From: Alphaproteobacteria bacterium
GTDB lineage: Bacteria; Pseudomonadota; Alphaproteobacteria; UBA828
Assembly (NCBI GenBank): GCA_963422645.2
Contig: CAXXVO010000014.1
Coordinates: 224,001-288,000 of the forward strand
Reading direction: 5' to 3'
DNA: 64,000 bases
The notes below the pieces were generated by a model. The model made no database searches and was not told the DNA's origin. It saw only the letters and a list, made by a program, of their open reading frames with translations. Below, in pieces: positions 5,134 through 24,782 of the stretch (position 1 is the first letter of the stretch; the number at the start of each line of letters is the position of its first letter). The position numbers and the translations under genes were made by a program.

Positions 5134-5976
5134 CTACGCTTCCCGCACCACGCGGAAGCCGAAGTTGGCAGGCATGGGCTTCACCGAACAACCGCCGGTG
5201 GAGGTGTCGCGAACGAAGGTCGGCATGTAGCTTGTGTGCTCGCCGCGCAGGACCCTGATGCCGCAGTTCTCCCTGGAAACCGGGCCGTCATCGGTCCGGT
5301 AGGTCTGCTGCCAGCAGCCGTCGGTCCATTCCCAGACGTTGCCCTTGGTATCGACCACGCCGAACCCGTTGCTTTCGTAGGACGCCACCGGCTTCGTCTT
5401 GGCCGTTCCCCGGTAGGCCAGCAGGAAATCCTCCGCCCAGGCCAAGTCCTCGTCCCCGAAGTAGGAGGGCGGCTCGACCGGCTCCGGCGAACCCGCGCGC
5501 GCCGCGTATTCCCATTCGTCCCCGGTCGGCAAGCGGTAACGCTCGCCAGTCGCCTGCGACAGCCACTCCAGGTACTGCGCGATGTCGTCCCAGCTCACGT
5601 CGATGACGGGGCGGTCCGCCCGCCCCCAGCCCTTGTCGTCCGGGCGGTGGTCGCAGCCGCCGGCCCGGTGGCAGTGATCCCATTGCTCGAAGGTGATCTC
5701 GAATTTGCCCATCAGGAAGGGCCGCTCGAAGACGACGCGGCGGGGCTCCGCTTCTTCCATCCCTGCGGACCGGCGGTCGGAATCGCCGACCGCCATCTCA
5801 CCGGCCGGGATGAGGACGAGCTCCGGCAAGAATTTCCCGGGAACCGAGGGGCTGGCGGCTTCGGAGCCAGCCGAGCCGGCGCCGAAGAAGAGCGACACGC
5901 CCAGAATCCCCGCCGCAAGACACGCGCCCGCGGCAACCTGGCCAGGCAGCAGCCTCATCCTTTTGAATTCCATCAT
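5134..5976 (-). CDS. nirV: Formylglycine-generating-enzyme-domain protein, NirV-like
   Basis: RPVIDVSWDD, YRLPTGDEWEYAAR, GNVWEW and GFRVVR motifs. Immediately downstream of nirK. Confidence 0.75.
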   Translation of the reverse strand: MMEFKRMRLLPGQVAAGACLAAGILGVSLFFGAGSAGSEAASPSVPGKFLPELVLIPAGEMAVGDSDRRSAGMEEAEPRRVVFERPFLMGKFEITFEQWDHCHRAGGCDHRPDDKGWGRADRPVIDVSWDDIAQYLEWLSQATGERYRLPTGDEWEYAARAGSPEPVEPPSYFGDEDLAWAEDFLLAYRGTAKTKPVASYESNGFGVVDTKGNVWEWTDGCWQQTYRTDDGPVSRENCGIRVLRGEHTSYMPTFVRDTSTGGCSVKPMPANFGFRVVREA

Positions 5977-7264
5977 GTGCTGCACCCTCCCTCTCGATCG
6001 CGTTGGGCGAGGCAGGGGCTGCTCCCGGCAAGCGGGAGCAGCCCCTCTATTGCGGCGCCTAAGCCGTCATGATGGTCGGCGGTTGAACCTGTGTCATCAG
6101 GTTGTGGTCCCATTCGCCCTCCACGACGACGATGGCCAGCGCACCGAGCTCCACGGCCTCGATCAGGTTGTGCGACAGATACACGTAGGCGCCGCCCGGC
6201 TGGCGGAAGGTATAGAGCGCCGCACCGGCGGAGCCACCGCGGATGAACCAGGTCTCCAGCCCTTCCAGCGGCGGGTCGGAGAAGGAGCCCTCCTCCCAGA
6301 CATAGTCGCCGTGGCCGCCGATCAGGTGCGGCCTGGAATCGCGGTTGGCCTGGGAGTGGATGAAGAGCACGGACTCGCCGACATTGGCGGTCATCGCGTT
6401 GTCCCCGGTAAGCGCCCCGGCCGCGCCATTGAACACGACATGGCTTGGCGTGAGCGTGTGCATCACGTCGAAGACGTCCGCCATCGCATCCGCGTGCTCT
6501 TCGTACTCCAGGAAGTTGCCCTCGGCGTCGCGCGGCACGTAGAAGTCCTGCTCGCCGACATAATAGGCCCGGTCGTAGCGGAGCGGATTGCCGTGGCGGT
6601 CCTTGAGGCCGTCTCGCGGCAGCACCATCACGGCGCCATTCATGCCGGAGACGACGTGATAGGGGATCATCGAGCCACCCGGCGCGCAGTGGTAGATGTA
6701 GGTGCCGGGCTTGGTCGCCTTAAAGCGCAGCATGACCTGCTCGCCCGGCTGGACATGCGTGAGCGCGCCGCCTCCGAGCGCGCCCGTCGACGCGTGGAAG
6801 TCGATGTTGTGCTCGAAGATGTTGCTCGCCGGATTCTTGAGCGTGAGTTCGATGTAGTCGCCCTCGTGGCAGATCATCAGCGGCCCCGGAATCGAGCCGT
6901 TGAACGACAGCGTGTTGTACATGGTGCCGTCGCCGTCGATTACGCGCTTGTCCTCGACGGGGCTGAGTTCCACCTCGATGATCTTGGGGCCGTCGGTGGC
7001 GACCTGCTCGTGCGCCGGCACAAAGGGGGGCGCCACGAGCTCCTGCTTGACCCGCGGCAGGCTGCTGACATCCGCCTCGCTGGCCGAGGCCACCATTACG
7101 GGAGACATCGCCGATGCGGCTCCCAACGCGCCTCCGACCTTGAGAAAATCGTAACTGCCCAGGTCGTCTGATTTGTCATTTTGGGCCAGTGGATTGAGGC
7201 GTTTCTCGTTCGGAGTTGGTGGAAAGGGCTTGACGGGAATTTCGGGAAATGACTCAACAACGAC

Positions 7265-8771
7265 ATGAGCAATCCCGAGTCGCCGCGCGGCCCTTCGACG
7301 GGAGCAGCGCCCGAAACGCCCGCGCAGAAGATCGCCCGCCTGGAGGAGGAGAACGCCCGGCTTCGGGAGGAAAATGCCTGGCTTCGGCAGCAGAACGCGC
7401 GGCTGGAAGAGCAAGTCGCGCGTCTCGTCGAGCGCATCGAGGAGTTGGAGCGCCGTCTCGGCCTCAACAGCGGCAACAGCGGCAAGCCGCCTTCGAGCGA
7501 TGGGCTGAGGAAGCCGAATTCGAAGCGGCGAACCCGAAGCCTGCGCGGCAAATCGGGCCGCAAGCCCGGTGGCCAGCCCGGCCACAAGGGCAAGACGCTG
7601 CGCCGCGCCGATCACCCGGATCGGGTGAAGGATCACGTCCCGGCTTCCTGCAAGGGATGCGGTTCGCCGCTTTCGGACGCGGCCAGGGCGGGAACGCCCG
7701 TCGCCCGCCAGGTGTTCGATCTGCCCGAGCCGAGCCCCCTGGAGGTGACCGAGCACCGGGCGCATGCCAAGTGCTGCGGGCATTGCGGGACGGTGACCCG
7801 GGCGGCGTTCCCCGACGGGGTGTCGGCGCCGGTGCAGTACGGCCCGCGCATTGCCGGGGTGGCGGTCTACCTTCAGCACGCTCACTTCCTGCCGGAGGAT
7901 CGGCTGTCGCAGGTGATGGCCGAGCTCTTCGGCGCGCCGGTGACGGCTGCGACGTTGGCGACGATGAGCGAGAGGGCGGCCGAGCGGCTTGCGGGACGCG
8001 GCCTTGCACATACAGGACCTGGCGGCGGGCACGGCGCGGGTGAAACACATGGACGAGACCGGCTTGCGGATCGGCGGTCAGACGCAGTGGCTTCATGTGA
8101 TCTGCACGCCGCTGCTGGCGGCGTACCGGGTCAGCGGCAAGCGCGGCGCCCTGCTCTCGGGTGTCTCCGGCATCGTCGTGCACGATCACTGGAAGCCGTA
8201 CTTCGCGATGGAAGGGGTGGAGCACGGCCTGTGCAACGCCCATCACCTGCGGGAGTTGCAGGCGCTGGTGGACATCGAAGGGGAGGCTTGGGCCCGGCGG
8301 ATGCAGCAGCTCCTGCGCCGAGCCAATCGCGCCGCCCGCATCGCGCTGGACAAGGATATCGCCGTTCCGGCGAGGCTTGTGGCGCTGATCGAGCGCCGAT
8401 ACGACGAGATCATCGCCGATGCGCTGGCCTTTCACGAGAGCCAACCACCGTTCTCGCCTGGCAAGAGGAAGAAGCGCCGGAAGCGAAGGATCGGTCACAA
8501 TCTGGCCTTGAGGCTGCGCGACCACAAATGCGCGGTGCTCCGGTTCCTGATCGACCTCGAGGTCGGGTTCACGAACAACGAGGCCGAGCGCGACCTTCGG
8601 ATGATGAAGCTGCGCCAGAAGATCTCCGGGGGCTTCCGGTCCGCGCAGGGGGCCGAGAACTTCGCCATCCTGCGCAGCGTCATCACCACCGCCAGAAAGC
8701 AGGGCTGGAATATCATCGAAGCCCTGACCAGCCCATCGGATCGGCTCATCGCCACCGTCAAGTGCGCGTAA
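7265..8771 (+). pseudogene. IS66 transposase with +1 frameshift near 7989
   Basis: GAGCGGCTTGCGG here versus GAGCGGCTGCGG in copy 1. Splits into ORFs starting 7265 and 7989..8771. Confidence 0.85.
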
Positions 8772-8773
8772 GC

Positions 8774-11132
8774 TCAGACTTCCTGACCTCTGCTGATTTT
8801 AGGTGACACGAGCCGCGCGGATTCCGAGGCCCCGTCGATGTCGTAGACTATGCGCAGACGGGTGCCGGGGAAGACCGTTTCGGTGGCGTTCAGGTCGCTC
8901 AGAACCGCATCGATCCAACGGTCGCAGGCGTCGTTTGCGAGGCCAAGAATGTGGACCCGCAGGAGGCCATTGCCAGGATCCGGCAGGATGTCGGCATCGG
9001 CGGTGAGCAGCGCTTGAAGCAGTTTCCGGGGATGGGGCTTGTGGCCCTGCGCCTGCATGACGGGAAGCATCATGCGGGTTTCGGCGCGGTAGGCGATCAT
9101 CCGGATGACGTCGAGGAGGAGGCGCTCGCGCGCGGGCAAGGCATCGAGCTGCTCGGCTTCGTCGAGGTCGCCGGCCCGGCAGTGCTTGGGCGTCTCCCTG
9201 CGGCTGGCCCTGACGATGTCGCGGACATCCTGGAGGTCCCTGACTTCCCTCCTGAGTTCCGCCGTCGGCTGCTTCTTCCGGGCCGTGTCGGCGATGCGGT
9301 TGCGCAGGCGGCCAAGCTGGCGGTCGAGGCGATGGATTGCCTTGTCATAGGCCCGCCGCAGCGGGTTGACGACCATGGCGGCGGGATCGAGAGGCTCGAG
9401 CTCGTGGGTCGGCAGGGCGTCGAGATTGAACTCGTCACGCATGTACTTGAAGAAGTTCTCCTGCGACCAGCGCGAGAACATGGCGCCCGCAACCTCAGCC
9501 ATCGGCTTGTGCGGATCGGTGGTGATCAGCGGCACCTGACGGCCGTTGTCGAGCAGGCGGCGGATCTGGCGCACCCTGAAGCCGTTCGGCAACGTCACCG
9601 GCTTCTCAGCCAGCCGCATGGTGGCGCTGCCGTCCGCCGCCGGTCCGTGAATGGGAACGGTCATCGCGCCGAAGTCCTCGGCCGGCCAGTCCTCGCCCCT
9701 GAAGTTCTTGTGCCAGGTCAGGCAGGCGACGCCGCGCCTCGCCAGCCGGCGGAACAGATCCGGGCTCCAGCCCTCGCGGTCGAAGACCAGGGTGAGCGCC
9801 GGCTGGCCGGGATGCTCGGCGGTCAGGTCCGGCGCCCCGGCGCCAACGATCCCAAGCTCCTGCAGCGCCGGCACCACGTCGGCTTCGATGGCCGCGACCA
9901 TCTTCGGGTCCAGCGGCTTGTGCAGACAGAGCAGCGGCTTGCCGCCCAGAGCGTTGATCCAGTAGCTGGCGCTCGCCGGCAGGCACAGCTTCTCGCGCGA
10001 GACGAAGTGCTTGGGCAAGCGCCCCTTGCGGCCGGAGTAGACCTTGACGTGCCCGTCGATGGCCAGCGTCGCCCAGAGCTCCGGCTCGTCGGCCTTGCCA
10101 GCGCCTGGCAAGGGCGAGCTGCCACGCCCGCACGCCGGCCTCGTCGTCGGCGATGAGAGCGATCTTGCGGCGCAGCGTCTTGACCTCGGGGCAGCGATCG
10201 AGGCCGAGAATGGCGCCCCATTCGCCCGGCGCCTGGTAGCGCAGGCTCTCGGGGTTGCGCACCCGCGCCAAGGTCATGAAGGCCAGGAAGAGCAGGATCG
10301 TAGGCAAGCCGTAATAGCCCTTCGGCAGCAATGGCAGGAGACCGGTCTCGGAGAGAAGACCTTCCTTCAGCAGGGCCGGCAGGGCGGCGAGCACGCCGCC
10401 GAAGCGGACACCGCGGGCGGCGGCGGCGAACTGCGGTTCGACCGGCCCCGCCTGTCCACAACTGGCCAGAACCCGAGCCGGAACATCGCAAGTCGCACGC
10501 CCCATCGGCGCCTGCCGGTCCCGCCGATCGCGCGCGCTGCGATCCGTTTGCGGCTGCGCTTCCAGCCCCGGCGCCGTCTCCGGCCCCGGGGCACCGGTAC
10601 TCTCTTCATCGACACGGCCTTCAGGAGCCGCACCCGCGTCAGGCGGCGCAGCCAGCGCTGAGCGTCCGGGCTCCCCATCCGCCTCCGTGTTGCCGATCAG
10701 TCCCTGACGGCGCCACTTGTTGACCGATGGCGCTGACACGCCGAGAACCCGGGCCGCCGCAGAGCCGCTCAGGCCCGATGCCAGCAACGCCGTCGCCTTC
10801 TCCGCCAACTCCGGAGTGAACACCGACGGCCCGCGACCGCGCCGGGGCTTCATGAACCCCGCTTCGCCCTCGGCCAGGTAGCGCCGTCGTGCGCGCTGCA
10901 CCGTCGCGCGCGAGACAGCGAAAGCGTCAGCCAGTTCCTGCGGCGAGACCGCGCTGATCGCCGCGAGGCGGCCGATCCGCAAGAGCATGGCCGTGCGGTC
11001 ATCGGCGGCGTGGCTGTCAAAGGGAATGAGGTTGGAAAAGTAGGTGAAGGTGTCGTCCGAGATCAGGACGGCGAAGCAGCTGTTGCCGATCGAGACCGCC
11101 TCTGGAGGGCACATTGGGAGGGTACTGGGCAT
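8774..11132 (-). pseudogene. Large putative DDE transposase, frameshifted near 10095
   Basis: N-terminal HTH-like segments; AIDGHVKVY, VFDREGWS and RWSQENFFKY motifs. The two ORFs join if one base is removed at TGG CAA G GCC GAC. Confidence 0.8.
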
Positions 11133-11286
11133 GGTTGAGACCGTGCAATTGGTATCAAATTATAATATCAGACCTCGGGCGCGACACCCAGCGAAAAACC
11201 GCCTGAAACAACCGAAATGTATCAGAATTCAAGGGGTTCCCGGCACGCTGCCCAGAACAGCCAGCATCACGAGGTCAGGAAGTCTG
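8775..11286 (-). mobile_element. Nested IS of uncertain family
   Basis: Perfect IR CAGACTTCCTGACCTC at both ends. Duplication AAGCT at 8770-8774 and 11287-11291 (alternatively 17-bp IR with 3-bp AGC). The empty site is visible in IS66 copy 1. Confidence 0.93.
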
Positions 11287-11701
11287 AAGCTCACCTGGCA
11301 CGGGTTCTCCAACAGCGGAGCCATTCTCATAAACGATCATGGTCGACGCCGTGCTGGACCACCCCATAGAATGAAAATCGGTGCCCGTCGCGCGGGCGGA
11401 CTTCGGGCCACATCGGGGTAGCTTACCGGTCGCAGTCCGCAAGAGGGGCATCGTGAGCTGTGAAACCCGGCGACCCCAGAGGAGCACACGGGCGTCGCGT
11501 GGGTAGCGTTGTGCCGAATCCCAGAGAATTTTCACAGCAAGAACCTGGGCAGTTACAGAAAATCACGCCTGTTCACTTGCAGCATGGCTATTACCTCCTA
11601 ATCAGCTGTTGTCTCTTGGCTTGCCTTCGGTGCGCCCGCGCGCAGATCGGCTGAGCAGTTAGGGCATTCGACGATCCACGGAGACGAGCGCCGGGGCACT
11701 A

Positions 11702-18181: not shown

Positions 18182-20413
18182 ATGTTGGGAACAAGACCGC
18201 GTCGAGAGTCCTCACCCCTTAGCAATGCGTCGCGGGCAGTGCGCTGGGGGCTTCTTGCCCTGGCGGCGCTTATCCTGCCGCTCTTCTTCGATGCGACCGC
18301 GCATGCTGAGGCGGAGCCGCCGATGCCGCCAGCCGTGGCTAGGGCGGACGTAGCACTCTACGCAGACGCCTTCAGGGCGGCCGCGCGAAGCAACTGGGGC
18401 CGCGCCCATCGTCTGGCCCGCCGTGCCGACGACCCGCTCGGCGCCACGATCCTGCGTTGGTGGGACTACAGCAGCCCCGGCACGCGCGCCTCCTTCGCCG
18501 ACATCGCGCGCTTCATCGACGAGCACCCGGACTGGCCGGACCAGAGACTGCTGCAAATCAATGCCGAATCGGCGATGGCGAGGGGTGTCTCCGATGTGGA
18601 TGTCCTGGCCTGGTACCGCTGGCGCGATCCCATCGGCCGCGAGGGCCGCCTGCGCTATGCCGACGCCCTGCTCGGCGCCGGCCAAGAGGATCGCGCGAGG
18701 GCGCTCGTTCGCACCGCATGGATCGAGGGAAGGTTCAGTGGGCGGGAGCTGCGCGAGACCTATCGTCGCTACCGCGCGCATCTGCGGCCAGAGGATCACG
18801 TCGCCCGCCTGGAGCGCCTGGTGTGGGCCAATCACGCCCCTTCGGCGCGGCGCATGTACCGTTACGTCGACGAGGGGCGTCAGAGACTGGCTGAGGCACG
18901 GCTGACGCTCCGTGCTTACTCTGGCGGCGTGGACCGGGCGATCGCGCGGGTGCCACGCTCGCTCCGCGACGATCCGGGGCTGGTTTACGAGCGGCTGCGC
19001 TGGCGACGGAAGAAGGGCCGCGACGAGGATGCCCGCGCCCTCTTGCAGACGCCGCCGCAGGACCTCGGCCCCCGACCCAAGCTCTGGTGGCGGGAGCGCG
19101 TTATTCTCGCGCGCCGCGCCCTGGAGGACGGGCTGATCGATGAGGCCTACGCGCTGGCCTCCGGTCATGGTCAGACCGCAGCCTCGACCTATTCCGAAGC
19201 CGAGTGGCTCGCCGGGTGGCTCGCCCTTCGCTTTCTCGACGATTCGCGCGGTGCGTTTCTCCACTTCGAGCGTATGCACGGCGCGGTCACCATGCCGATC
19301 AGCCGGGCGCGCGCGGCCTATTGGGCGGGCCTCGCCGCCGCGACCCTTGGCGATCCGGAGAGCGCGGGTCTCTGGTACGGCAAGGCGGCGGCATATCCCG
19401 CCACCTTCTATGGCCAGATCGCCATTGCGCGCATCGCCTCGCCCGATGCGCCATTGATCGGTGCTGCGCCCGGTGCAGCAGCCGGCGCGACCGGCGCCCC
19501 GACGCTCAACGGCCATGCGCTATTCGCGGCCGTTCGCGTCCTGACCTTTCTCGGGCGCGACTATCTCGCCGAGCCCTTCTACAAGCGCCTGAGCACGCTT
19601 TCGCGCAACGAAGCGGATCACGCCCTGGTCTCGGCGCTCGCGCTCTCCGTCGAACGGCCCCAGCAGGCGATCCGTGCCGCCCAACATGCCGCGCGGGACG
19701 GTTACGTCTCCATCGGGCGGCTGTTTCCGCTGGTAAACGTGCCCTTCGCAAGGAATGACTCTGCCCTCGAACACGCACTGGTGCTCGCGCTGATCCGCCA
19801 GGAGAGCCGCTTCGACCGGGAGGCGCGGAGCGGCTCCGGCGCGCTCGGCCTGATGCAGCTCATGCCGAGGACGGCGCGGAGTGTCGCCCGGCGGATGGGT
19901 CTGAGCGAATCCAGCAAGCGCCTGACCTCCAACCGGGCGCACAACGTGGCACTCGGCAGCCGCTATCTGAGCGACATGCTCAAGCGCTTCGACGGTTCGT
20001 ACCTGCTGGCCGCTGCAGCCTATAATGGCGGGCCGCGAAACGTCGCCCGCTGGATTGCGGCAAACGGCGACCCCCGGCACGACCCGGATGTGGACATCAT
20101 CGACTGGATCGAAATGATCCCGCTCGCAGAGACGCGAAACTACGTGCAGCGGGTCCTCGAAGGAACGCAAGTCTACCGTTGGCAGTTCGGCCGGCGGCCG
20201 ACCGCGTCGAGCCTGGAACGCGATCTTGCACGCGGCATGTCCGAGCGCACCATGGCCGCCCATTGCGCGAGGATCGACAACGGCGAGCGGCGCGCCCACG
20301 TCGATTTTCATGCGCTCTGCCGATTTTCGCGGGGGGAGGGTATCGCTCCTGCCGACCGGCAGGCGCGCGGCGAGAGCCTCCCTTCGGGATTGCGGCGACG
20401 GAGGCGCCCATGA
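18182..20413 (+). CDS. Soluble lytic murein transglycosylase (Slt70-like); start uncertain
   Basis: IRQESRF, GLMQLMP, AAYNGGP and ETRNYVQRV motifs after a helical-repeat N-terminus. Confidence 0.92.
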
Positions 20414-21364
20414 GCGACGGGCGCAACGCCGCCTTGGACTTAGGAGCGCCCGGGCCGCTGCCTCAACCTGGCGACGTGTATGCGGCGGCGGCGCGTCTCG
20501 CGGGGCACGCGGTCGAGACGCCGCTGCTTCGGGCCGACGCCCTCGACGAGCAGATCGGCGGGCGCCTGCTGCTCAAGGCGGAGCCGCTTCAGCGCACCGG
20601 CTCGTTCAAGTTCCGGGGCGCCTGCAACCGGCTGCTGCAGCTCGATGCGGCAGCCAAGGCGGGCGGCGTGGTCACGTATTCCTCTGGCAACCACGCCCAG
20701 GCCGTCGCGCTAGCGGCCAGGCTGGTCGGCGTGCCGGCGGTCATCGTCATGCCGAGAGACGCGCCCGCGGTGAAGATCGCAGGCACCCGCCGCCACGGCG
20801 CCGAGGTCGTGCTCTACGACCGCGCATCCGAGGCGCGGGAGGCGCTCGGCAAGCAGATCGCCGAGGAGCGGGGAGCGACGCTGGTCAAGCCCTATGACGA
20901 CTTCGATGTCATCGCCGGCCAGGGGACGGTGGGGCACGAAATTGTCCGGCAATGCAGTGCCATCGGCTGCCGGCCCGATGCCGTGGTCGTGCCCGCCGGC
21001 GGCGGCGGGTTGATGGCCGGAACCTCGCTCGCCGTTGCCGACGCCTGGCCCGAGGCCCGCCTTCACACCGCTGAACCGCAAGGCTACGATGACCACGCCA
21101 TGTCGTTCGAACAGGGCCGCCGTGTCGGCGTATCCGGTGCACAGGGCCAGAGCTTCTGCGACGCACTCCTCGCCCCCAAGCCCGGCGCGCTCACCTTCCC
21201 GATCAATGTGGAGCGGGTGCAGAGCGGCGTCGCCGTGAGCGACGCCGAGGTCGGCGCGGCCATGCGGGCGGCGTTCATGCACCTCAAGCTCGTGGTCGAG
21301 CCGGGGGGCGCGGTGGCGCTCGCGGCCGTGCTCGCAGGCAAGATCGCTACCGCAGGGCGCACCG

Positions 21365-23842
21365 CAATGGCATTCATTTGGCGCGAAGATTGTTCCGGGG
21401 GGTTTTTTTTTGGTGGTGTCGTAACGAGTTGATTTCTTGTGTGGATTGTCGGTCTCGGCGTTTCCCGCACGAGGGGGATTGACCGGCGGCGTGTGCTTTG
21501 GCACACTGTGGCTGTCCCCCTGTCAGTGGAGCCGGCCCATGGACCCCCGCATCACCGCGCTGAAGTCGACGACCTTTTTCGGCAGACGTCTGACCCGCCG
21601 GCAGATTGCCGACATCCAGGAGACGGTGGCGCTGTTTCCGGCGATCAGCCGCAACGAGCTCGGGCACACGATCTGCGAGCATTTGAACTGGCGCGCGCCG
21701 AGCGGGCGGAACCGTGTCGCGGTCTGCCTGCGGATGCTGGAGGAGTTGGAGCGGCTGGGCATCCTGACCCTGCCGGCGCGGGACGAGGCGCAGGTGCGGG
21801 GGCCGCAGGAGGCGATGGCCCGGAGCGAGCGGACGGCGCCGGCCGCGGCGATCGCGGAGGACCTGGCCGCGCTGATGCCGCTGCGCCTGTCGATTGCGGC
21901 GGGCAAGGAGGAGGGCGGGCTGTGGAACGAGTTCGTCGCGCGCCACCACTATCTCGGGCTGCATCGTCTGGTCGGCGCGCATCTGCGCTATTTTCTCCTG
22001 GACCGCCACGGGCGGCCTCTGGGCTGCCTTCTGTTTGCCCGGGCGTCGCGCGCGGTGCCCTGCCGCGACGAGTGGATCGGGTGGCCGGCGGAAGGCTTCC
22101 GCAAGCACCTCGATCTGGTCGTGGGTCACACGCGTTTCCTGATCTTTCCCTGGGTCCGGGTCGACAACCTGGCGTCGAAAGCGCTGTCGATGGCGCTGCG
22201 CCAGCTGCCCGGCGACTGGGAGGCGCGCTTCGGAGCGCGCCCGGTTCTGGTGGAGACCTTCGTGGACCCCAGCCTCTTCGACGGCGCCTGCTACCGCGCG
22301 GCCAACTGGCGCTGTCTCGGCGAGACCGGGGGCGGCAAGGGCAAGACCCGCAAAAGCGTCTACGTCTACCCGCTGACGCCGGACTTCCGCTCGATCCTGC
22401 TCGAAGGCCCGCGGCCGGCGCGGCGCGGGAACAGGACACGGCCGGCAGCGCTGGCGCCGGACGATCCCTTCGTGGCGCTGTGGCAGGACCTGATCGGCGC
22501 ACTGGCGGCGGTGGCCGCCGATCACGACCGGGTGTGGCAGAGCCGCCGGCGGGTCCTCGACACCCTTCTCGTCATGCTCTTCATCTTCCGGCTGGCGTTC
22601 TCGAACGGCCGCGCGGGCTACGCCACGACGCTGGCCGGGCTGTGGGAGCAGTGCCGGGTCCTGGGCGTCGCACTGCCGCAGCCGGCGCCGGTCTCGGCCT
22701 CGGCGATGTGCATGGCGCGGGCCAAGGTCGACGAGGCGGTGTTCAAGACGCTGCACGCCGAGATCCTCAAGCGCGCCGACGGCCCGGCCTGGAAGGGCCA
22801 CCGCGTGTTCGCGGTCGACGGCTCCAAGCTCAACCTGCCGCGGCCGCTGCTCAAGGCCGGCTACCGCACGCCCTCCGAGGCGGCCCACTACCCGCAGGGC
22901 CTGCTGAGTTGCCTCTACCGGCTGCACGCGAACATCCCGGTGGACTTCGACCTGGTCGCGCACGGCGACGAAAGAAGGGCCGCCCTCGCCCACCTCAAGG
23001 CGCTCTCGGCCAACGACATCGTGGTCTATGACCGCGGCTACTACTCTTGGGAGATGCTGCACGCCCATGTCGCCCGCGGCCTGCACCCCGTGTTCCGGAT
23101 CAAGAAGAAGGCAGGCGCCGCCCTCGACGCCTTCATCGCCGACGGCCGCACGGACGCGCCGATCACCGTCGCTCCCGGAAAGGACACCCTGAGAAAGCTG
23201 CGCCGCAAGACGCCGCACGTCGACGCCACCCCGCTGCGCCTGCGACTGGTCCGCTACCGCATCGGCAGCACGGTCTTCATCCTCGCCACCACCCTCCTCG
23301 ACCCCAAGGCCTGGAGCGTCGCGGAACTGGCCGAGCTCTATCACGCGCGCTGGGGAATCGAGGAACTCTACAAGACCTCGAAACAGGCCATGGCCGTCGA
23401 GGCCTTCCACAGCCAGACCGAGCGCGGCGTCCGCCAGGAGCTCTTCGCCCACTTCAACCTCATCGCCATGACCCGGCTCTTCACCAACCGCAGCAACGCA
23501 AGCCTCGACGCCGAGCGCCCTGCCGACGGCAAGCCGGCGATGAAAGCCAACTTCAGCAACGGCCTCGCCACCGTCGCGCGCAACCTCGAAGCGCTGCTGC
23601 TGCGCCATACGGCGATGGTCGCCGAAACCCTCAGCCATGTCCTCTCCTGCATCAACCAGGCGCGTCAGCGCCCGCACCCCGGCCGGTCCTGCGAACGCAG
23701 GTCGCGCAAACCCCGCGGCAAGTGGGCACGCGCAAAGCGGGCCGTCGCCTGAACACCTGAACGACAGAAACGCACGCAACCGACAGCGCAAGAACACGAC
23801 TCCTTAAGTGAACAGTCGAAAACCGCTAAGTGAATGCCATTG
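21365..23842 (+). mobile_element. IS4-family element, 2478 bp
   Basis: IRs CAATGGCATTCATTTGGCG and CGCTAAGTGAATGCCATTG (17/19). 10-bp TSD GGGCGCACCG at 21355-21364 and 23843-23852. Confidence 0.95.
21539..23752 (+). CDS. Fusion of DUF4338/DruA-like domain and IS4-family DDE transposase
   Basis: N-half has HHYLG, RDEWIGW, RFLIFPWV..NLAS and ETFVD...GACYRAANW..LG. C-half has AVDGS, YDRGY and a Y-2-R-3-E-6-K signature (YHARWGIEELYKTSK). Confidence 0.88.
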   Translation: MDPRITALKSTTFFGRRLTRRQIADIQETVALFPAISRNELGHTICEHLNWRAPSGRNRVAVCLRMLEELERLGILTLPARDEAQVRGPQEAMARSERTAPAAAIAEDLAALMPLRLSIAAGKEEGGLWNEFVARHHYLGLHRLVGAHLRYFLLDRHGRPLGCLLFARASRAVPCRDEWIGWPAEGFRKHLDLVVGHTRFLIFPWVRVDNLASKALSMALRQLPGDWEARFGARPVLVETFVDPSLFDGACYRAANWRCLGETGGGKGKTRKSVYVYPLTPDFRSILLEGPRPARRGNRTRPAALAPDDPFVALWQDLIGALAAVAADHDRVWQSRRRVLDTLLVMLFIFRLAFSNGRAGYATTLAGLWEQCRVLGVALPQPAPVSASAMCMARAKVDEAVFKTLHAEILKRADGPAWKGHRVFAVDGSKLNLPRPLLKAGYRTPSEAAHYPQGLLSCLYRLHANIPVDFDLVAHGDERRAALAHLKALSANDIVVYDRGYYSWEMLHAHVARGLHPVFRIKKKAGAALDAFIADGRTDAPITVAPGKDTLRKLRRKTPHVDATPLRLRLVRYRIGSTVFILATTLLDPKAWSVAELAELYHARWGIEELYKTSKQAMAVEAFHSQTERGVRQELFAHFNLIAMTRLFTNRSNASLDAERPADGKPAMKANFSNGLATVARNLEALLLRHTAMVAETLSHVLSCINQARQRPHPGRSCERRSRKPRGKWARAKRAVA

Positions 23843-23942
23843 GGGCGCACCGTGGTCGCGGTTCTCTCCGGCGGCAATGTGGATCCCGCCACCTTCCGGG
23901 CAGTTCTGAATCAGGGCGATGATCCTGCCGCTGACTAGCCGA

Positions 23943-24782
23943 ATGAAATCGCGGGACCTCTCGGGTCGGTTCGCCGTCGCGCTAGTCACGCTGCTTCTGG
24001 CTATCCCCCTCGTGCAGGGCTGCGCGGCCCTGGAACGGCTCACGGATGCGGAGACCAGCTCCCTCGACAGTGCTCCGTCCGTGGAGGAACGCGGCGCCGA
24101 CTGGCCGGTTCTGCCGCGCGAGGGCGGAGAGGACGGCTATGACGATCCCTTCGAAGGGGTGAACAGCGTCTTCTTCTACGTCAACGGCGCGTTCGACTTT
24201 CTCGTCTTCGAGCCGCTGGCGCGCTTCTACCGCGGCTTCATGCCGAGCGATGCGCGGCACGCGGTGAGCCGCGCCTTCACCAATCTGGCGGAGCCGGTCG
24301 TTGCTGCGAACCACCTGTTGCAGCTCAACGACGGGCGTGCCGTCACCAGTCTCGGCCGTTTCGCGGTCAACAGTACCGCCGGCGCGGCCGGGCTCTTCGA
24401 CGTCGCGACCGCTCTCGGCCTGGAGGCCGACGACTCCGACTTCGGGCAGACGCTGCACCACTATGGCGTGGGCTCCGGCCCTTATCTGGTGCTGCCCTTC
24501 TTCGGCCCCACGACGGCGCGCGACGCGGTGGGCTTCGGCGTCGACGGCCTGATCGATCCGCGCGGCTACCTGATCGCCCCGCTGACCCGCCTCCAGCTCA
24601 GCCTGGGCGAGGGGGTCGTGCGCCGCGAAGAGGTGATCGACCCGGTCGATTTCCTGATCGAATACGCTCTCGATCACTACGACGCGGTGCGTGCCTGGAA
24701 CTATCAGGAGCGCCAGCGCGAGCTCACCGGCGGCTGCACCGAGCCCATCTACGTGACCTGCCCCGGCTACTCGCCGGAGTAA
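23943..24782 (+). CDS. mlaA: VacJ/MlaA-family lipoprotein
   Basis: Lipobox VQGC, DPFEGVN, RFAVNST.G..GLFDVA, DFGQTL..YGVGSGPYLVLPFFGP. Confidence 0.92.
   Translation: MKSRDLSGRFAVALVTLLLAIPLVQGCAALERLTDAETSSLDSAPSVEERGADWPVLPREGGEDGYDDPFEGVNSVFFYVNGAFDFLVFEPLARFYRGFMPSDARHAVSRAFTNLAEPVVAANHLLQLNDGRAVTSLGRFAVNSTAGAAGLFDVATALGLEADDSDFGQTLHHYGVGSGPYLVLPFFGPTTARDAVGFGVDGLIDPRGYLIAPLTRLQLSLGEGVVRREEVIDPVDFLIEYALDHYDAVRAWNYQERQRELTGGCTEPIYVTCPGYSPE

Follow-up and report, generated by a model that had tools for sequence, protein, structure and literature searches.

Why would a transposase carry, ahead of its catalytic core, a domain that resembles a DNA-modifying enzyme? The question is raised by an insertion sequence (IS) of an Alphaproteobacteria bacterium of the UBA828 lineage (assembly GCA_963422645.2). 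The element lies in a stretch of 64,000 nucleotides of contig CAXXVO010000014.1 (positions 224,001 to 288,000 of the forward strand), here called the window, whose numbering is used for all positions given without another contig. It belongs to the IS4 family, occupies 2,478 bp on the plus strand (21365..23842) and encodes one protein of 737 aa, the first ~295 residues of which form a DruA (DUF4338) module. The best explanation overall, to which we give a little better than an even chance on the sequence comparisons described below, is that this module is a portable Mom-like transferase, tethered by the transposase, which would mark nucleic acid to control transposition. What is new here is an IS4 element with an enzyme-like accessory domain, a fusion not described in the literature searched.

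The boundaries of the element were set from its ends, from ten genomic copies and from contig breaks. The left terminal inverted repeat, CAATGGCATTCATTTGGCG (19 bp; 21365..21383, plus strand), starts with the tip CAATGGCATT, the right one (23824..23842, minus strand) reads CAATGGCATTCACTTAGCG on the minus strand, and 17 of the 19 positions agree between the two. On either side stands a copy of the 10-bp target-site duplication GGGCGCACCG, at 21355..21364 on the left and at 23843..23852 on the right. The only open reading frame (ORF) between the repeats (21539..23752, plus strand) encodes 737 aa plus the stop and is uninterrupted by stop codons; its ATG has GGAG 7 nt upstream, and the homologues of the protein start at the same MD...LKSTTF. 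A scan of 21300-23900 for sigma-70-like promoters, uninformative in high-GC DNA, returned no site.

In the part of the IS4 survey available to us (De Palmenaer et al. 2008, PMC2266710), the IS4 subgroup is defined by ends of the type '-AATR', duplications of 10-13 bp and a length of 1,400-1,650 bp, and no N-terminal extension is mentioned there. The tip CAATG, present at both ends of the window element, fits this consensus, and its ends and duplication length place the element, at the level of sequence, in the subgroup. With 2,478 bp and 737 aa, the element exceeds the subgroup length of 1,400-1,650 bp with a transposase of ~400-460 aa. The excess is due to the ~295-aa N-terminal DruA module; without it, the core of ~440 aa is of subgroup size.

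As an autonomous insertion sequence of the IS4 family, the element has been active recently and moved as a unit. In the genome (5.9 Mb, 23 contigs), 36 BLAST segments match it, and full-length copies number ten, with an identity of 99.6-100%. Nine of the ten have their own distinct and perfect 10-bp duplication, at differing GC-rich sites; the 737-aa ORF is intact in six copies and frameshifted in the other four. An earlier reading of the window, made from the letters alone (the sequence-only reading), had described a complete element with 19-bp repeats, a 10-bp duplication and a single 737-aa ORF, had supposed that the fusion moved recently as a unit, and had proposed a genome search for copies with different duplications. 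The description was accurate, and the ten near-identical copies, nine with their own duplications, bear out the supposition. The sole full-length copy without a matching duplication lies at C5:639227-641695; its left flank, CGCCGCGGCG, is identical to the duplication of the copy at C3:135106, which suggests either inter-copy recombination or a second event.

We modelled the full-length protein with AlphaFold2 (AF2) on an alignment of 78 sequences, obtaining a predicted local distance difference test (pLDDT) score of 86.9 and a predicted template modelling (pTM) score of 0.60. The protein consists of two units joined by a flexible linker, because residues 295-299 (22421..22435, plus strand) have a pLDDT <50 and because the core aligns over the whole Tn5 chain. 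The C-terminal unit, residues 300-737 (22436..23749, plus strand), is a complete Tn5-like DDE transposase with its own N-terminal helical region: after the linker come five helices (310-412) and then an RNase-H-type core. Pfam DDE_Tnp_1 matched residues 418-639 with 75.2 bits against a cut-off of 23 (E 8e-21), and NCBIfam transpos_IS4_1 (NF033592) matched residues 367-647 with 156.9 against 115. In the Foldseek search with the core, Tn5 transposase (1muh_A, E 1.6e-9) aligned over 457 columns for a chain of 455 residues, and ranks 1-5 among the solved structures were Tn5 transposase throughout. The catalytic residues are D427, D498 and E608 and the YREK signature is Y601, R604, E608 and K615, all of them invariant or at least 90% conserved in the 78 fused relatives. 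Thus, the window protein is like the IS4 subgroup and Tn5/IS50 transposases in DDE triad, Y(2)R(3)E(6)K signature, ends, duplication length and whole-chain fold, and unlike them in its N-terminal DruA module of ~295 aa, which the classical members do not have.

The N-terminal unit, residues 1-290, is a portable DruA module made of a head and a GNAT domain, and its nearest solved relative is Mom of phage Mu. Pfam DruA/DUF4338 (PF14236) matched residues 88-272 with 109.7 bits against a cut-off of 27 (E 2e-31) and matched all of the 41 aligned relatives too. The AF2 model of residues 1-300, obtained with 40 stand-alone relatives of ~300 aa, had a pLDDT of 92.1. According to DSSP on the AF2 models, the helical head (residues 1-85; 21539..21793, plus strand) contains three helices (20-32, 38-48 and 60-72) and short strands, and as modelled it looks winged-helix-like; its residues W51, C46, G56, L67, G74, L78 and P79 are conserved in stand-alone as well as fused relatives. 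The Mom-like GNAT domain follows at residues 110-290 (21866..22408, plus strand), as located by the Pfam DruA match, the AF2 model and the match to the Mom structure 8bv8. In the part of the work of Aravind and colleagues available to us (PMC10853773), DUF4338 is a GNAT domain.

Mom was the best solved match of the module by Foldseek (8bv8, E 1.9e-5, residues 109-289), and it was also the top match by VIA, with Z 15.0, a root-mean-square deviation of 3.4, 162 aligned residues and 18% identity; the next GNAT reached Z 13.1 with 9% identity, followed by a plateau near 12.5. A phage Mom also appeared at rank 3 in the viral library. Pfam Mom (PF25680) was the only recurrent second family among the relatives, found in 21 of 41 at E<=1 (best 0.0021), and hhalign gave a weak match of the DruA family to the single Mu Mom sequence (E 0.042 over 50 columns) and a better one to a 32-member Mom family (E 0.0062 over 150 columns). 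As far as sequence profiles can tell, the link between module and Mom is real, yet sub-threshold. The module also resembles Mom in having no glycine-rich motif A. It differs in possessing an N-terminal helical head instead of the helix-turn-helix (HTH)-like insertion of Mom, and in belonging to a transposase, Mom being a phage late gene product.

The sequence-only reading had assigned the C-terminal part to an IS4 DDE transposase with YREK and the N-terminal ~290 aa to DUF4338/DruA, and had pointed to a likeness to Mom; these assignments agree with the results above. The motifs on which it relied are all present, namely HHYLG at 136-140, RDEWIGW at 176-182, ETFVD at 239-243 and GACYRAANW at 249-257, followed by RC and LG; only its spacing of four residues between ETFVD and GACYRAANW was wrong, the correct number being five.

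Once the fold is compared, the active site can be considered. In the available part of the Mom study (Silva et al., PMC13219725), Mom is an anti-restriction enzyme that uses Gly-tRNA(Gly) as its donor and attaches the glycine to the adenine N6 of double-stranded DNA. Its active site is described there as H58, Y59, R111, S124, D149, R151 and Y159, with R111, S124 and R151 essential, and its HTH-like insertion (~175-209) is required for activity. We paired the residues of Mom with conserved residues of the module through the hhalign sequence-profile alignment: H58/Y59 correspond to H137/Y138, N121 to N210, S124 to S213, F147 to F241, D149 to D243, G156 to G249, Y159 to Y252 and N163 to N256. Conservation was then evaluated on 120 fused proteins, 51-100% identical, with their first 340 residues aligned by MAFFT. 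H137, R176, R199, S213, E239, Y252, N256 and W257 are present in 120/120, and D177 (119), D243 (115) and Y138 (113) are near-invariant. Given this conservation in the fused proteins, we infer that the module is a working transferase and not a relic.

Database records of the fusion are abundant and name it just 'IS4 family transposase'. Of 8,000 candidates scored with the whole protein, 1,642 clusters matched at E<=1e-3, and both Pfam domains were found in all of the 120 listed matches. The sequence-only reading had called such fusions 'not unknown', which is right about their existence and understates their commonness. Full-length relatives occur, among others, in genomes of Rhodobacterales/Paracoccaceae, several gammaproteobacterial orders, Nitrospirales, Bryobacterales and Deltaproteobacteria. 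Terminal repeats were found by script in nine of the 14 relative loci examined; all start with (C)AATGGCATT and have the tip CAATGGCATT in common, and several are accompanied by 10-bp duplications.

With the module alone as query, 7,005 clusters (50% identity) matched at E<=1e-3 among 1.84 billion representatives. Among the best 150 module matches, 23 are <280 aa, 55 are 280-340, 37 are 341-520, eight are 521-680 and 27 are >680. The 72 proteins >340 aa in this set include 22 with DDE_Tnp_1, 13 with Tnp_DNA_bind (Tn5-type), three with DDE_Tnp_IS66, two with DDE_Tnp_ISAZ013, one with DDE_3 and one with a guanylate cyclase. The transposase partners of the module come from at least five Pfam families. 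The Tn5-type fusions retain their own DNA-binding domain, and in the IS66 fusions the module is C-terminal.

A second module lineage is present in the same genome (G000), with proteins of ~295 aa that are 35-45% identical, and at two loci its gene directly follows an IS66-family transposase. One IS66-type element, of ~3.5 kb (G000:C13:~253005-256527), is bounded by inverted repeats of ~80 bp (GTAATGCTTC...) and an 8-bp duplication (CAGAATTC); it contains the transposase and then a separate DruA-type gene of ~295 aa, the 3' end of which reaches into the right repeat. Since the module gene is separate within this element, an IS can also employ the module as a protein of its own. Related IS66-type copies lie at C6:339311-342617, C8:580323-583392 and C16:~209155-211469. 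A metagenome-assembled genome of Candidatus Acidoferrales contains six near-identical loci that match the module only (residues 15-299, 45% identity), which on sequence suggests another multi-copy carrier, in which the module has another partner or stands alone.

In the plasmid collection searched by tblastn, none of the 715 matching records covers at least 80% of the 737-aa protein. On the Candidatus Thiodictyon syntrophicum plasmid NZ_CP020372.1, a fused DruA-IS4 element lies inside a DUF2235 gene (locus 5369-11354) and is split by an integrase and an IS91 transposase; the annotation therefore lists an IS4 transposase and, apart from it, a 'stand-alone' DUF4338 protein. This match, the one N-domain match to be inspected, was accordingly discarded as a stand-alone module, being a fused element split by the IS91/integrase insertion.

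A relative that lacks the module helps to define its role. An IS found on Robbsia andropogonis plasmids (NZ_CP139167.1, 2960-4387) measures 1,428 bp and encodes a transposase of 463 aa, 41% identical to residues 298-729 of the window protein. This transposase begins 23 bp inside the left repeat and has no DruA module, and the repeats begin with the same tip, CAATGGCATTC. The IS is multi-copy, as each plasmid record matches it in 1-4 places. Because the same tip is used by this module-less element, the module is an accessory and not the end-binding domain; on these sequence comparisons, we infer that it would be needed neither for end recognition nor for the chemistry. Of the nearest core relatives, 120 were listed; 11 of them have no Pfam DruA match (PF01609 only), and seven of these 11 keep remnants of the module. 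The other four were considered as module-less close relatives and rejected, as they begin at query residues 308-339, which fits ORF calls that are truncated. As judged from these sequences, the module is not lost within the closer clade.

How could such a module serve an IS? Judging from its family, the core would bind the CAATGGCATT-tipped repeats, cut and paste through hairpin intermediates and produce 10-bp duplications. In the mechanism that we propose, the transposase would tether the module to DNA, and the module would transfer an acyl or aminoacyl group onto nucleic acid, most plausibly onto adenine in the DNA of the element or close to it. Either an aminoacyl-tRNA, the kind of donor that Mom uses, or an acyl-CoA could supply the group. 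Such a mark would then govern when and where the element moves, by analogy with the host Dam methylation of IS10 and IS50. In these two IS4-family elements, transposase expression and the use of the ends depend on the N6-adenine modification of their own DNA. The analogy has its differences, as the modifier there is a host methyltransferase, and here it would be element-borne and chemically different. The steps are not equally probable: the module is probably catalytic on some substrate, and that this substrate is a DNA base is a serious possibility, although somewhat short of an even chance. A bolder version, which we consider rather unlikely, is that transposition is coupled to DNA hypermodification, with a bulky adenine adduct placed at the ends, at the donor site or at the target from aminoacyl-tRNA or another acyl donor. 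It would be a self-encoded epigenetic mark, present in at least five transposase families, governing immunity, timing or copy number, and Druantia DruA could be its domesticated descendant, or the reverse.

Several observations weigh against a Mom-like transferase. By sequence, Pfam Mom scores only 11.5 bits with the whole protein and 14.2 with the N-domain, below its cut-off of 27.1; hhalign assigns a low probability to the alignment of the DruA family with the Mom family; and the search of the N-domain against the PDB returned a chance hit only (E 2.4), with none at E<=10 for the 41-sequence profile. The HTH-like insertion of Mom is absent from the module, where it faces gaps in the profile alignment, and only a short hairpin (258-278) is present. 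Mom R111 falls in an alignment gap and is unpaired, although the invariant R199 stands 14 residues before S213, compared with 13 in Mom. Mom R151 is aligned to L246; in the 120 relatives this position is K in 56, R in 50, Q in seven and L in four. Since the element with L246 has multiplied, full Mom-like catalysis may be absent in the window element or not needed for its movement, as far as the sequence indicates. No other internal argument against a need of such catalysis for movement is as strong as Leu246 in an element that proliferates, and the conserved residues could reflect ligand binding without catalysis. As the module-less Robbsia relative is multi-copy, transposition can in principle do without the module. 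The Mom authors themselves state, in the available part of their study (PMC13219725), that the GNAT fold alone foretells neither donor nor acceptor. Finally, no paper describing a DruA-transposase fusion or a function of DruA/DUF4338 was found in the literature searched, and a preprint on the YprA helicase contains no mention of DruA, GNAT, transposase or Mom.

Some of these points fit an alternative that we regard as fairly unlikely, in which the module is a non-catalytic binding domain, recognising, for example, a tRNA, a host factor, a flipped base or some structure in DNA, and steering target choice, transpososome assembly or timing. Leu246 in place of the basic residue in a multiplied element and the unpaired R111 would be expected of such a domain, the modelled helical head suggests nucleic-acid binding, and the pTM of 0.60 together with the floppy linker fits a tethered adaptor. 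However, the invariant set coincides with the mapped active-site positions of Mom and not with a surface patch, and K or R occupies position 246 in 106 of the 120 relatives. Furthermore, the fusion with a guanylate cyclase fits an autonomous activity better than an adaptor specific to transposases.

The module could instead, like the majority of GNATs, be a protein acyltransferase that acts on the transposase or on a host nucleoid protein and so regulates transposition, which we find improbable. Coherently with this, its structural neighbours other than Mom are small-molecule or protein N-acetyltransferases (such as Naa60, RimI and SpeG, Z 12-13). The canonical acetyl-CoA motif of GNATs is Q/RxxGxG/A. 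The loop before helix 3 does not contain it, reading V-D-N-L-A-S in the module and P-R-N-S-E-S in Mom. Mom stands ~2 Z units and 8-10 identity points above the acetyltransferases, and among the sub-threshold matches of the 41 relatives there is no Pfam acetyltransferase family, compared with Mom in 21 of 41. The designation of DUF4338 simply as a GNAT domain in the available part of PMC10853773 would suit an acyltransferase too.

The sequence-only reading had named a link to defence as a candidate, beside DNA modification, and a role of the element in defence or counter-defence, with the module shielding DNA from restriction or interfering with phage, as DruA presumably does in Druantia, has slim prospects on our results. 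The family is named after a component of Druantia type I, and two PADLOC DruA models were matched weakly by 31 and nine of the 41 stand-alone relatives (best E 5.6e-7). Mom is itself anti-restriction in the available part of its description (PMC13219725). However, PADLOC returned no family at E<=1 for either the 737-aa protein or the N-domain, and there is no DruB-E or other defence gene in or beside the element. In Druantia type I, druA reportedly shares its operon with druB, druC, druD and the gene of the DruE helicase; between the repeats of the window element there is a single ORF. The module and Druantia DruA share the Pfam family, and the head-plus-GNAT layout is shared with the stand-alone relatives of ~300 aa; the window element differs in having neither the DruB-E context nor a PADLOC DruA match at E<=1. 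The recurrent partners of the module are transposases of several families, which argues for a role in transposition, and the element, like an ordinary IS, proliferates and disrupts host genes. Thus, the defence link was not borne out. As to the module being a sequence-specific end-binding domain that replaces the usual N-terminal domain through which IS4/Tn5 transposases bind their ends, its N-terminal position and winged-helix-like head would agree, but the idea is very improbable and largely refuted, given that the core aligns along the entire Tn5 chain including the N-terminal region, that the same repeat tip is used by the Robbsia IS, which lacks the module, that the Tn5-type fusions retain Tnp_DNA_bind, and that the module is C-terminal in the IS66 fusions and a separate protein in the IS66-type element of this genome.

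Returning to the Mom-like transferase, if the module modifies DNA, it would represent an enzymatic step in bacterial transposition found in no paper of the literature searched, and a second instance of Mom-type chemistry outside phages. The commonest genomic partners of DruA are apparently transposases and not defence genes, and an IS is a simpler assay system than a five-gene defence operon, with one protein, one DNA substrate and a scorable frequency. Natural variants are already available in a single genome: six intact and four frameshifted copies, Leu246, the separate module gene of the IS66-type element, and a recombinase parasite.

This parasite is a serine-recombinase element that homes to the most conserved motif of the module. 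Seven copies of the window IS are split at element position 885-891, and in four of these seven the insert is a 2,818-bp element that encodes only a large serine recombinase of 733 aa, with the domains Resolvase, Recombinase, Zn_ribbon_recom and HTH_17. The recombinase element has seven full-length copies, four in the window IS, two in the second module lineage and one with hybrid flanks, located at G000:C6:280324-283141, C5:335247-338064, C10:178473-181290, C14:17828-20645, C5:428756-431575, C8:743390-746209 and C6:342645-345462. All seven lie at ETFV(D/E) codons, where the left flank ends with GAGA and the right flank starts with GTGGAGACCTT; in the second module lineage, only GAGA is shared at the flanks. 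This pattern fits, on the sequence of the junctions, a short-core site-specific recombination and not a transposase duplication.

The window copy interrupts a gene for a pyridoxal phosphate (PLP)-dependent enzyme of the threo-3-hydroxy-L-aspartate/threonine ammonia-lyase type. The 5' part of the gene (20179..21364, plus strand; the listed ORF start at 20179 is mechanical) matched NF005454 with E 3.5e-91 over profile positions 10-300 of 324, and Pfam PALP with E 4e-71. Reading across the duplication, the frame of the host gene picks up again after the element for 28 codons, and the 3' remnant (23852..23938, plus strand) reads VVAVLSGGNVDPATFRAVLNQGDDPAAD and then a stop. Downstream of the element is mlaA, so that the flanks consist of the split PLP-enzyme gene and mlaA.

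The window copy has some private features. Its G/T tract at 21401-21405 is four or five bases longer than in the other nine full-length copies, its residues 172 and 173 are altered (22052 and 22055), and residue 713 is H (23676). The other nine copies have G at that position of the codon, with R713 in the five other intact ORFs, and R is almost invariant there in the relatives. The Logan contigs of four public runs contained no joint spanning the element, and hence neither an empty site nor an excision product. These contigs carry the majority form of the element, unlike the window copy; contig starts fall exactly at 21365 in three of the four runs, contig ends fall at 23842 in all of the four but one, where they fall at 23843, and contigs of run X2 span both junctions of the window insertion. 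In two runs labelled as other organisms (X6 and X7), the element is present at high contig depth with hardly any of the window flanks (20900-24300 compared). The X7 element differs at 25 positions over 2,024 bp, and X6 and X7 each have one joint that omits 104 bp (22177-22282) around the ETFVD region.

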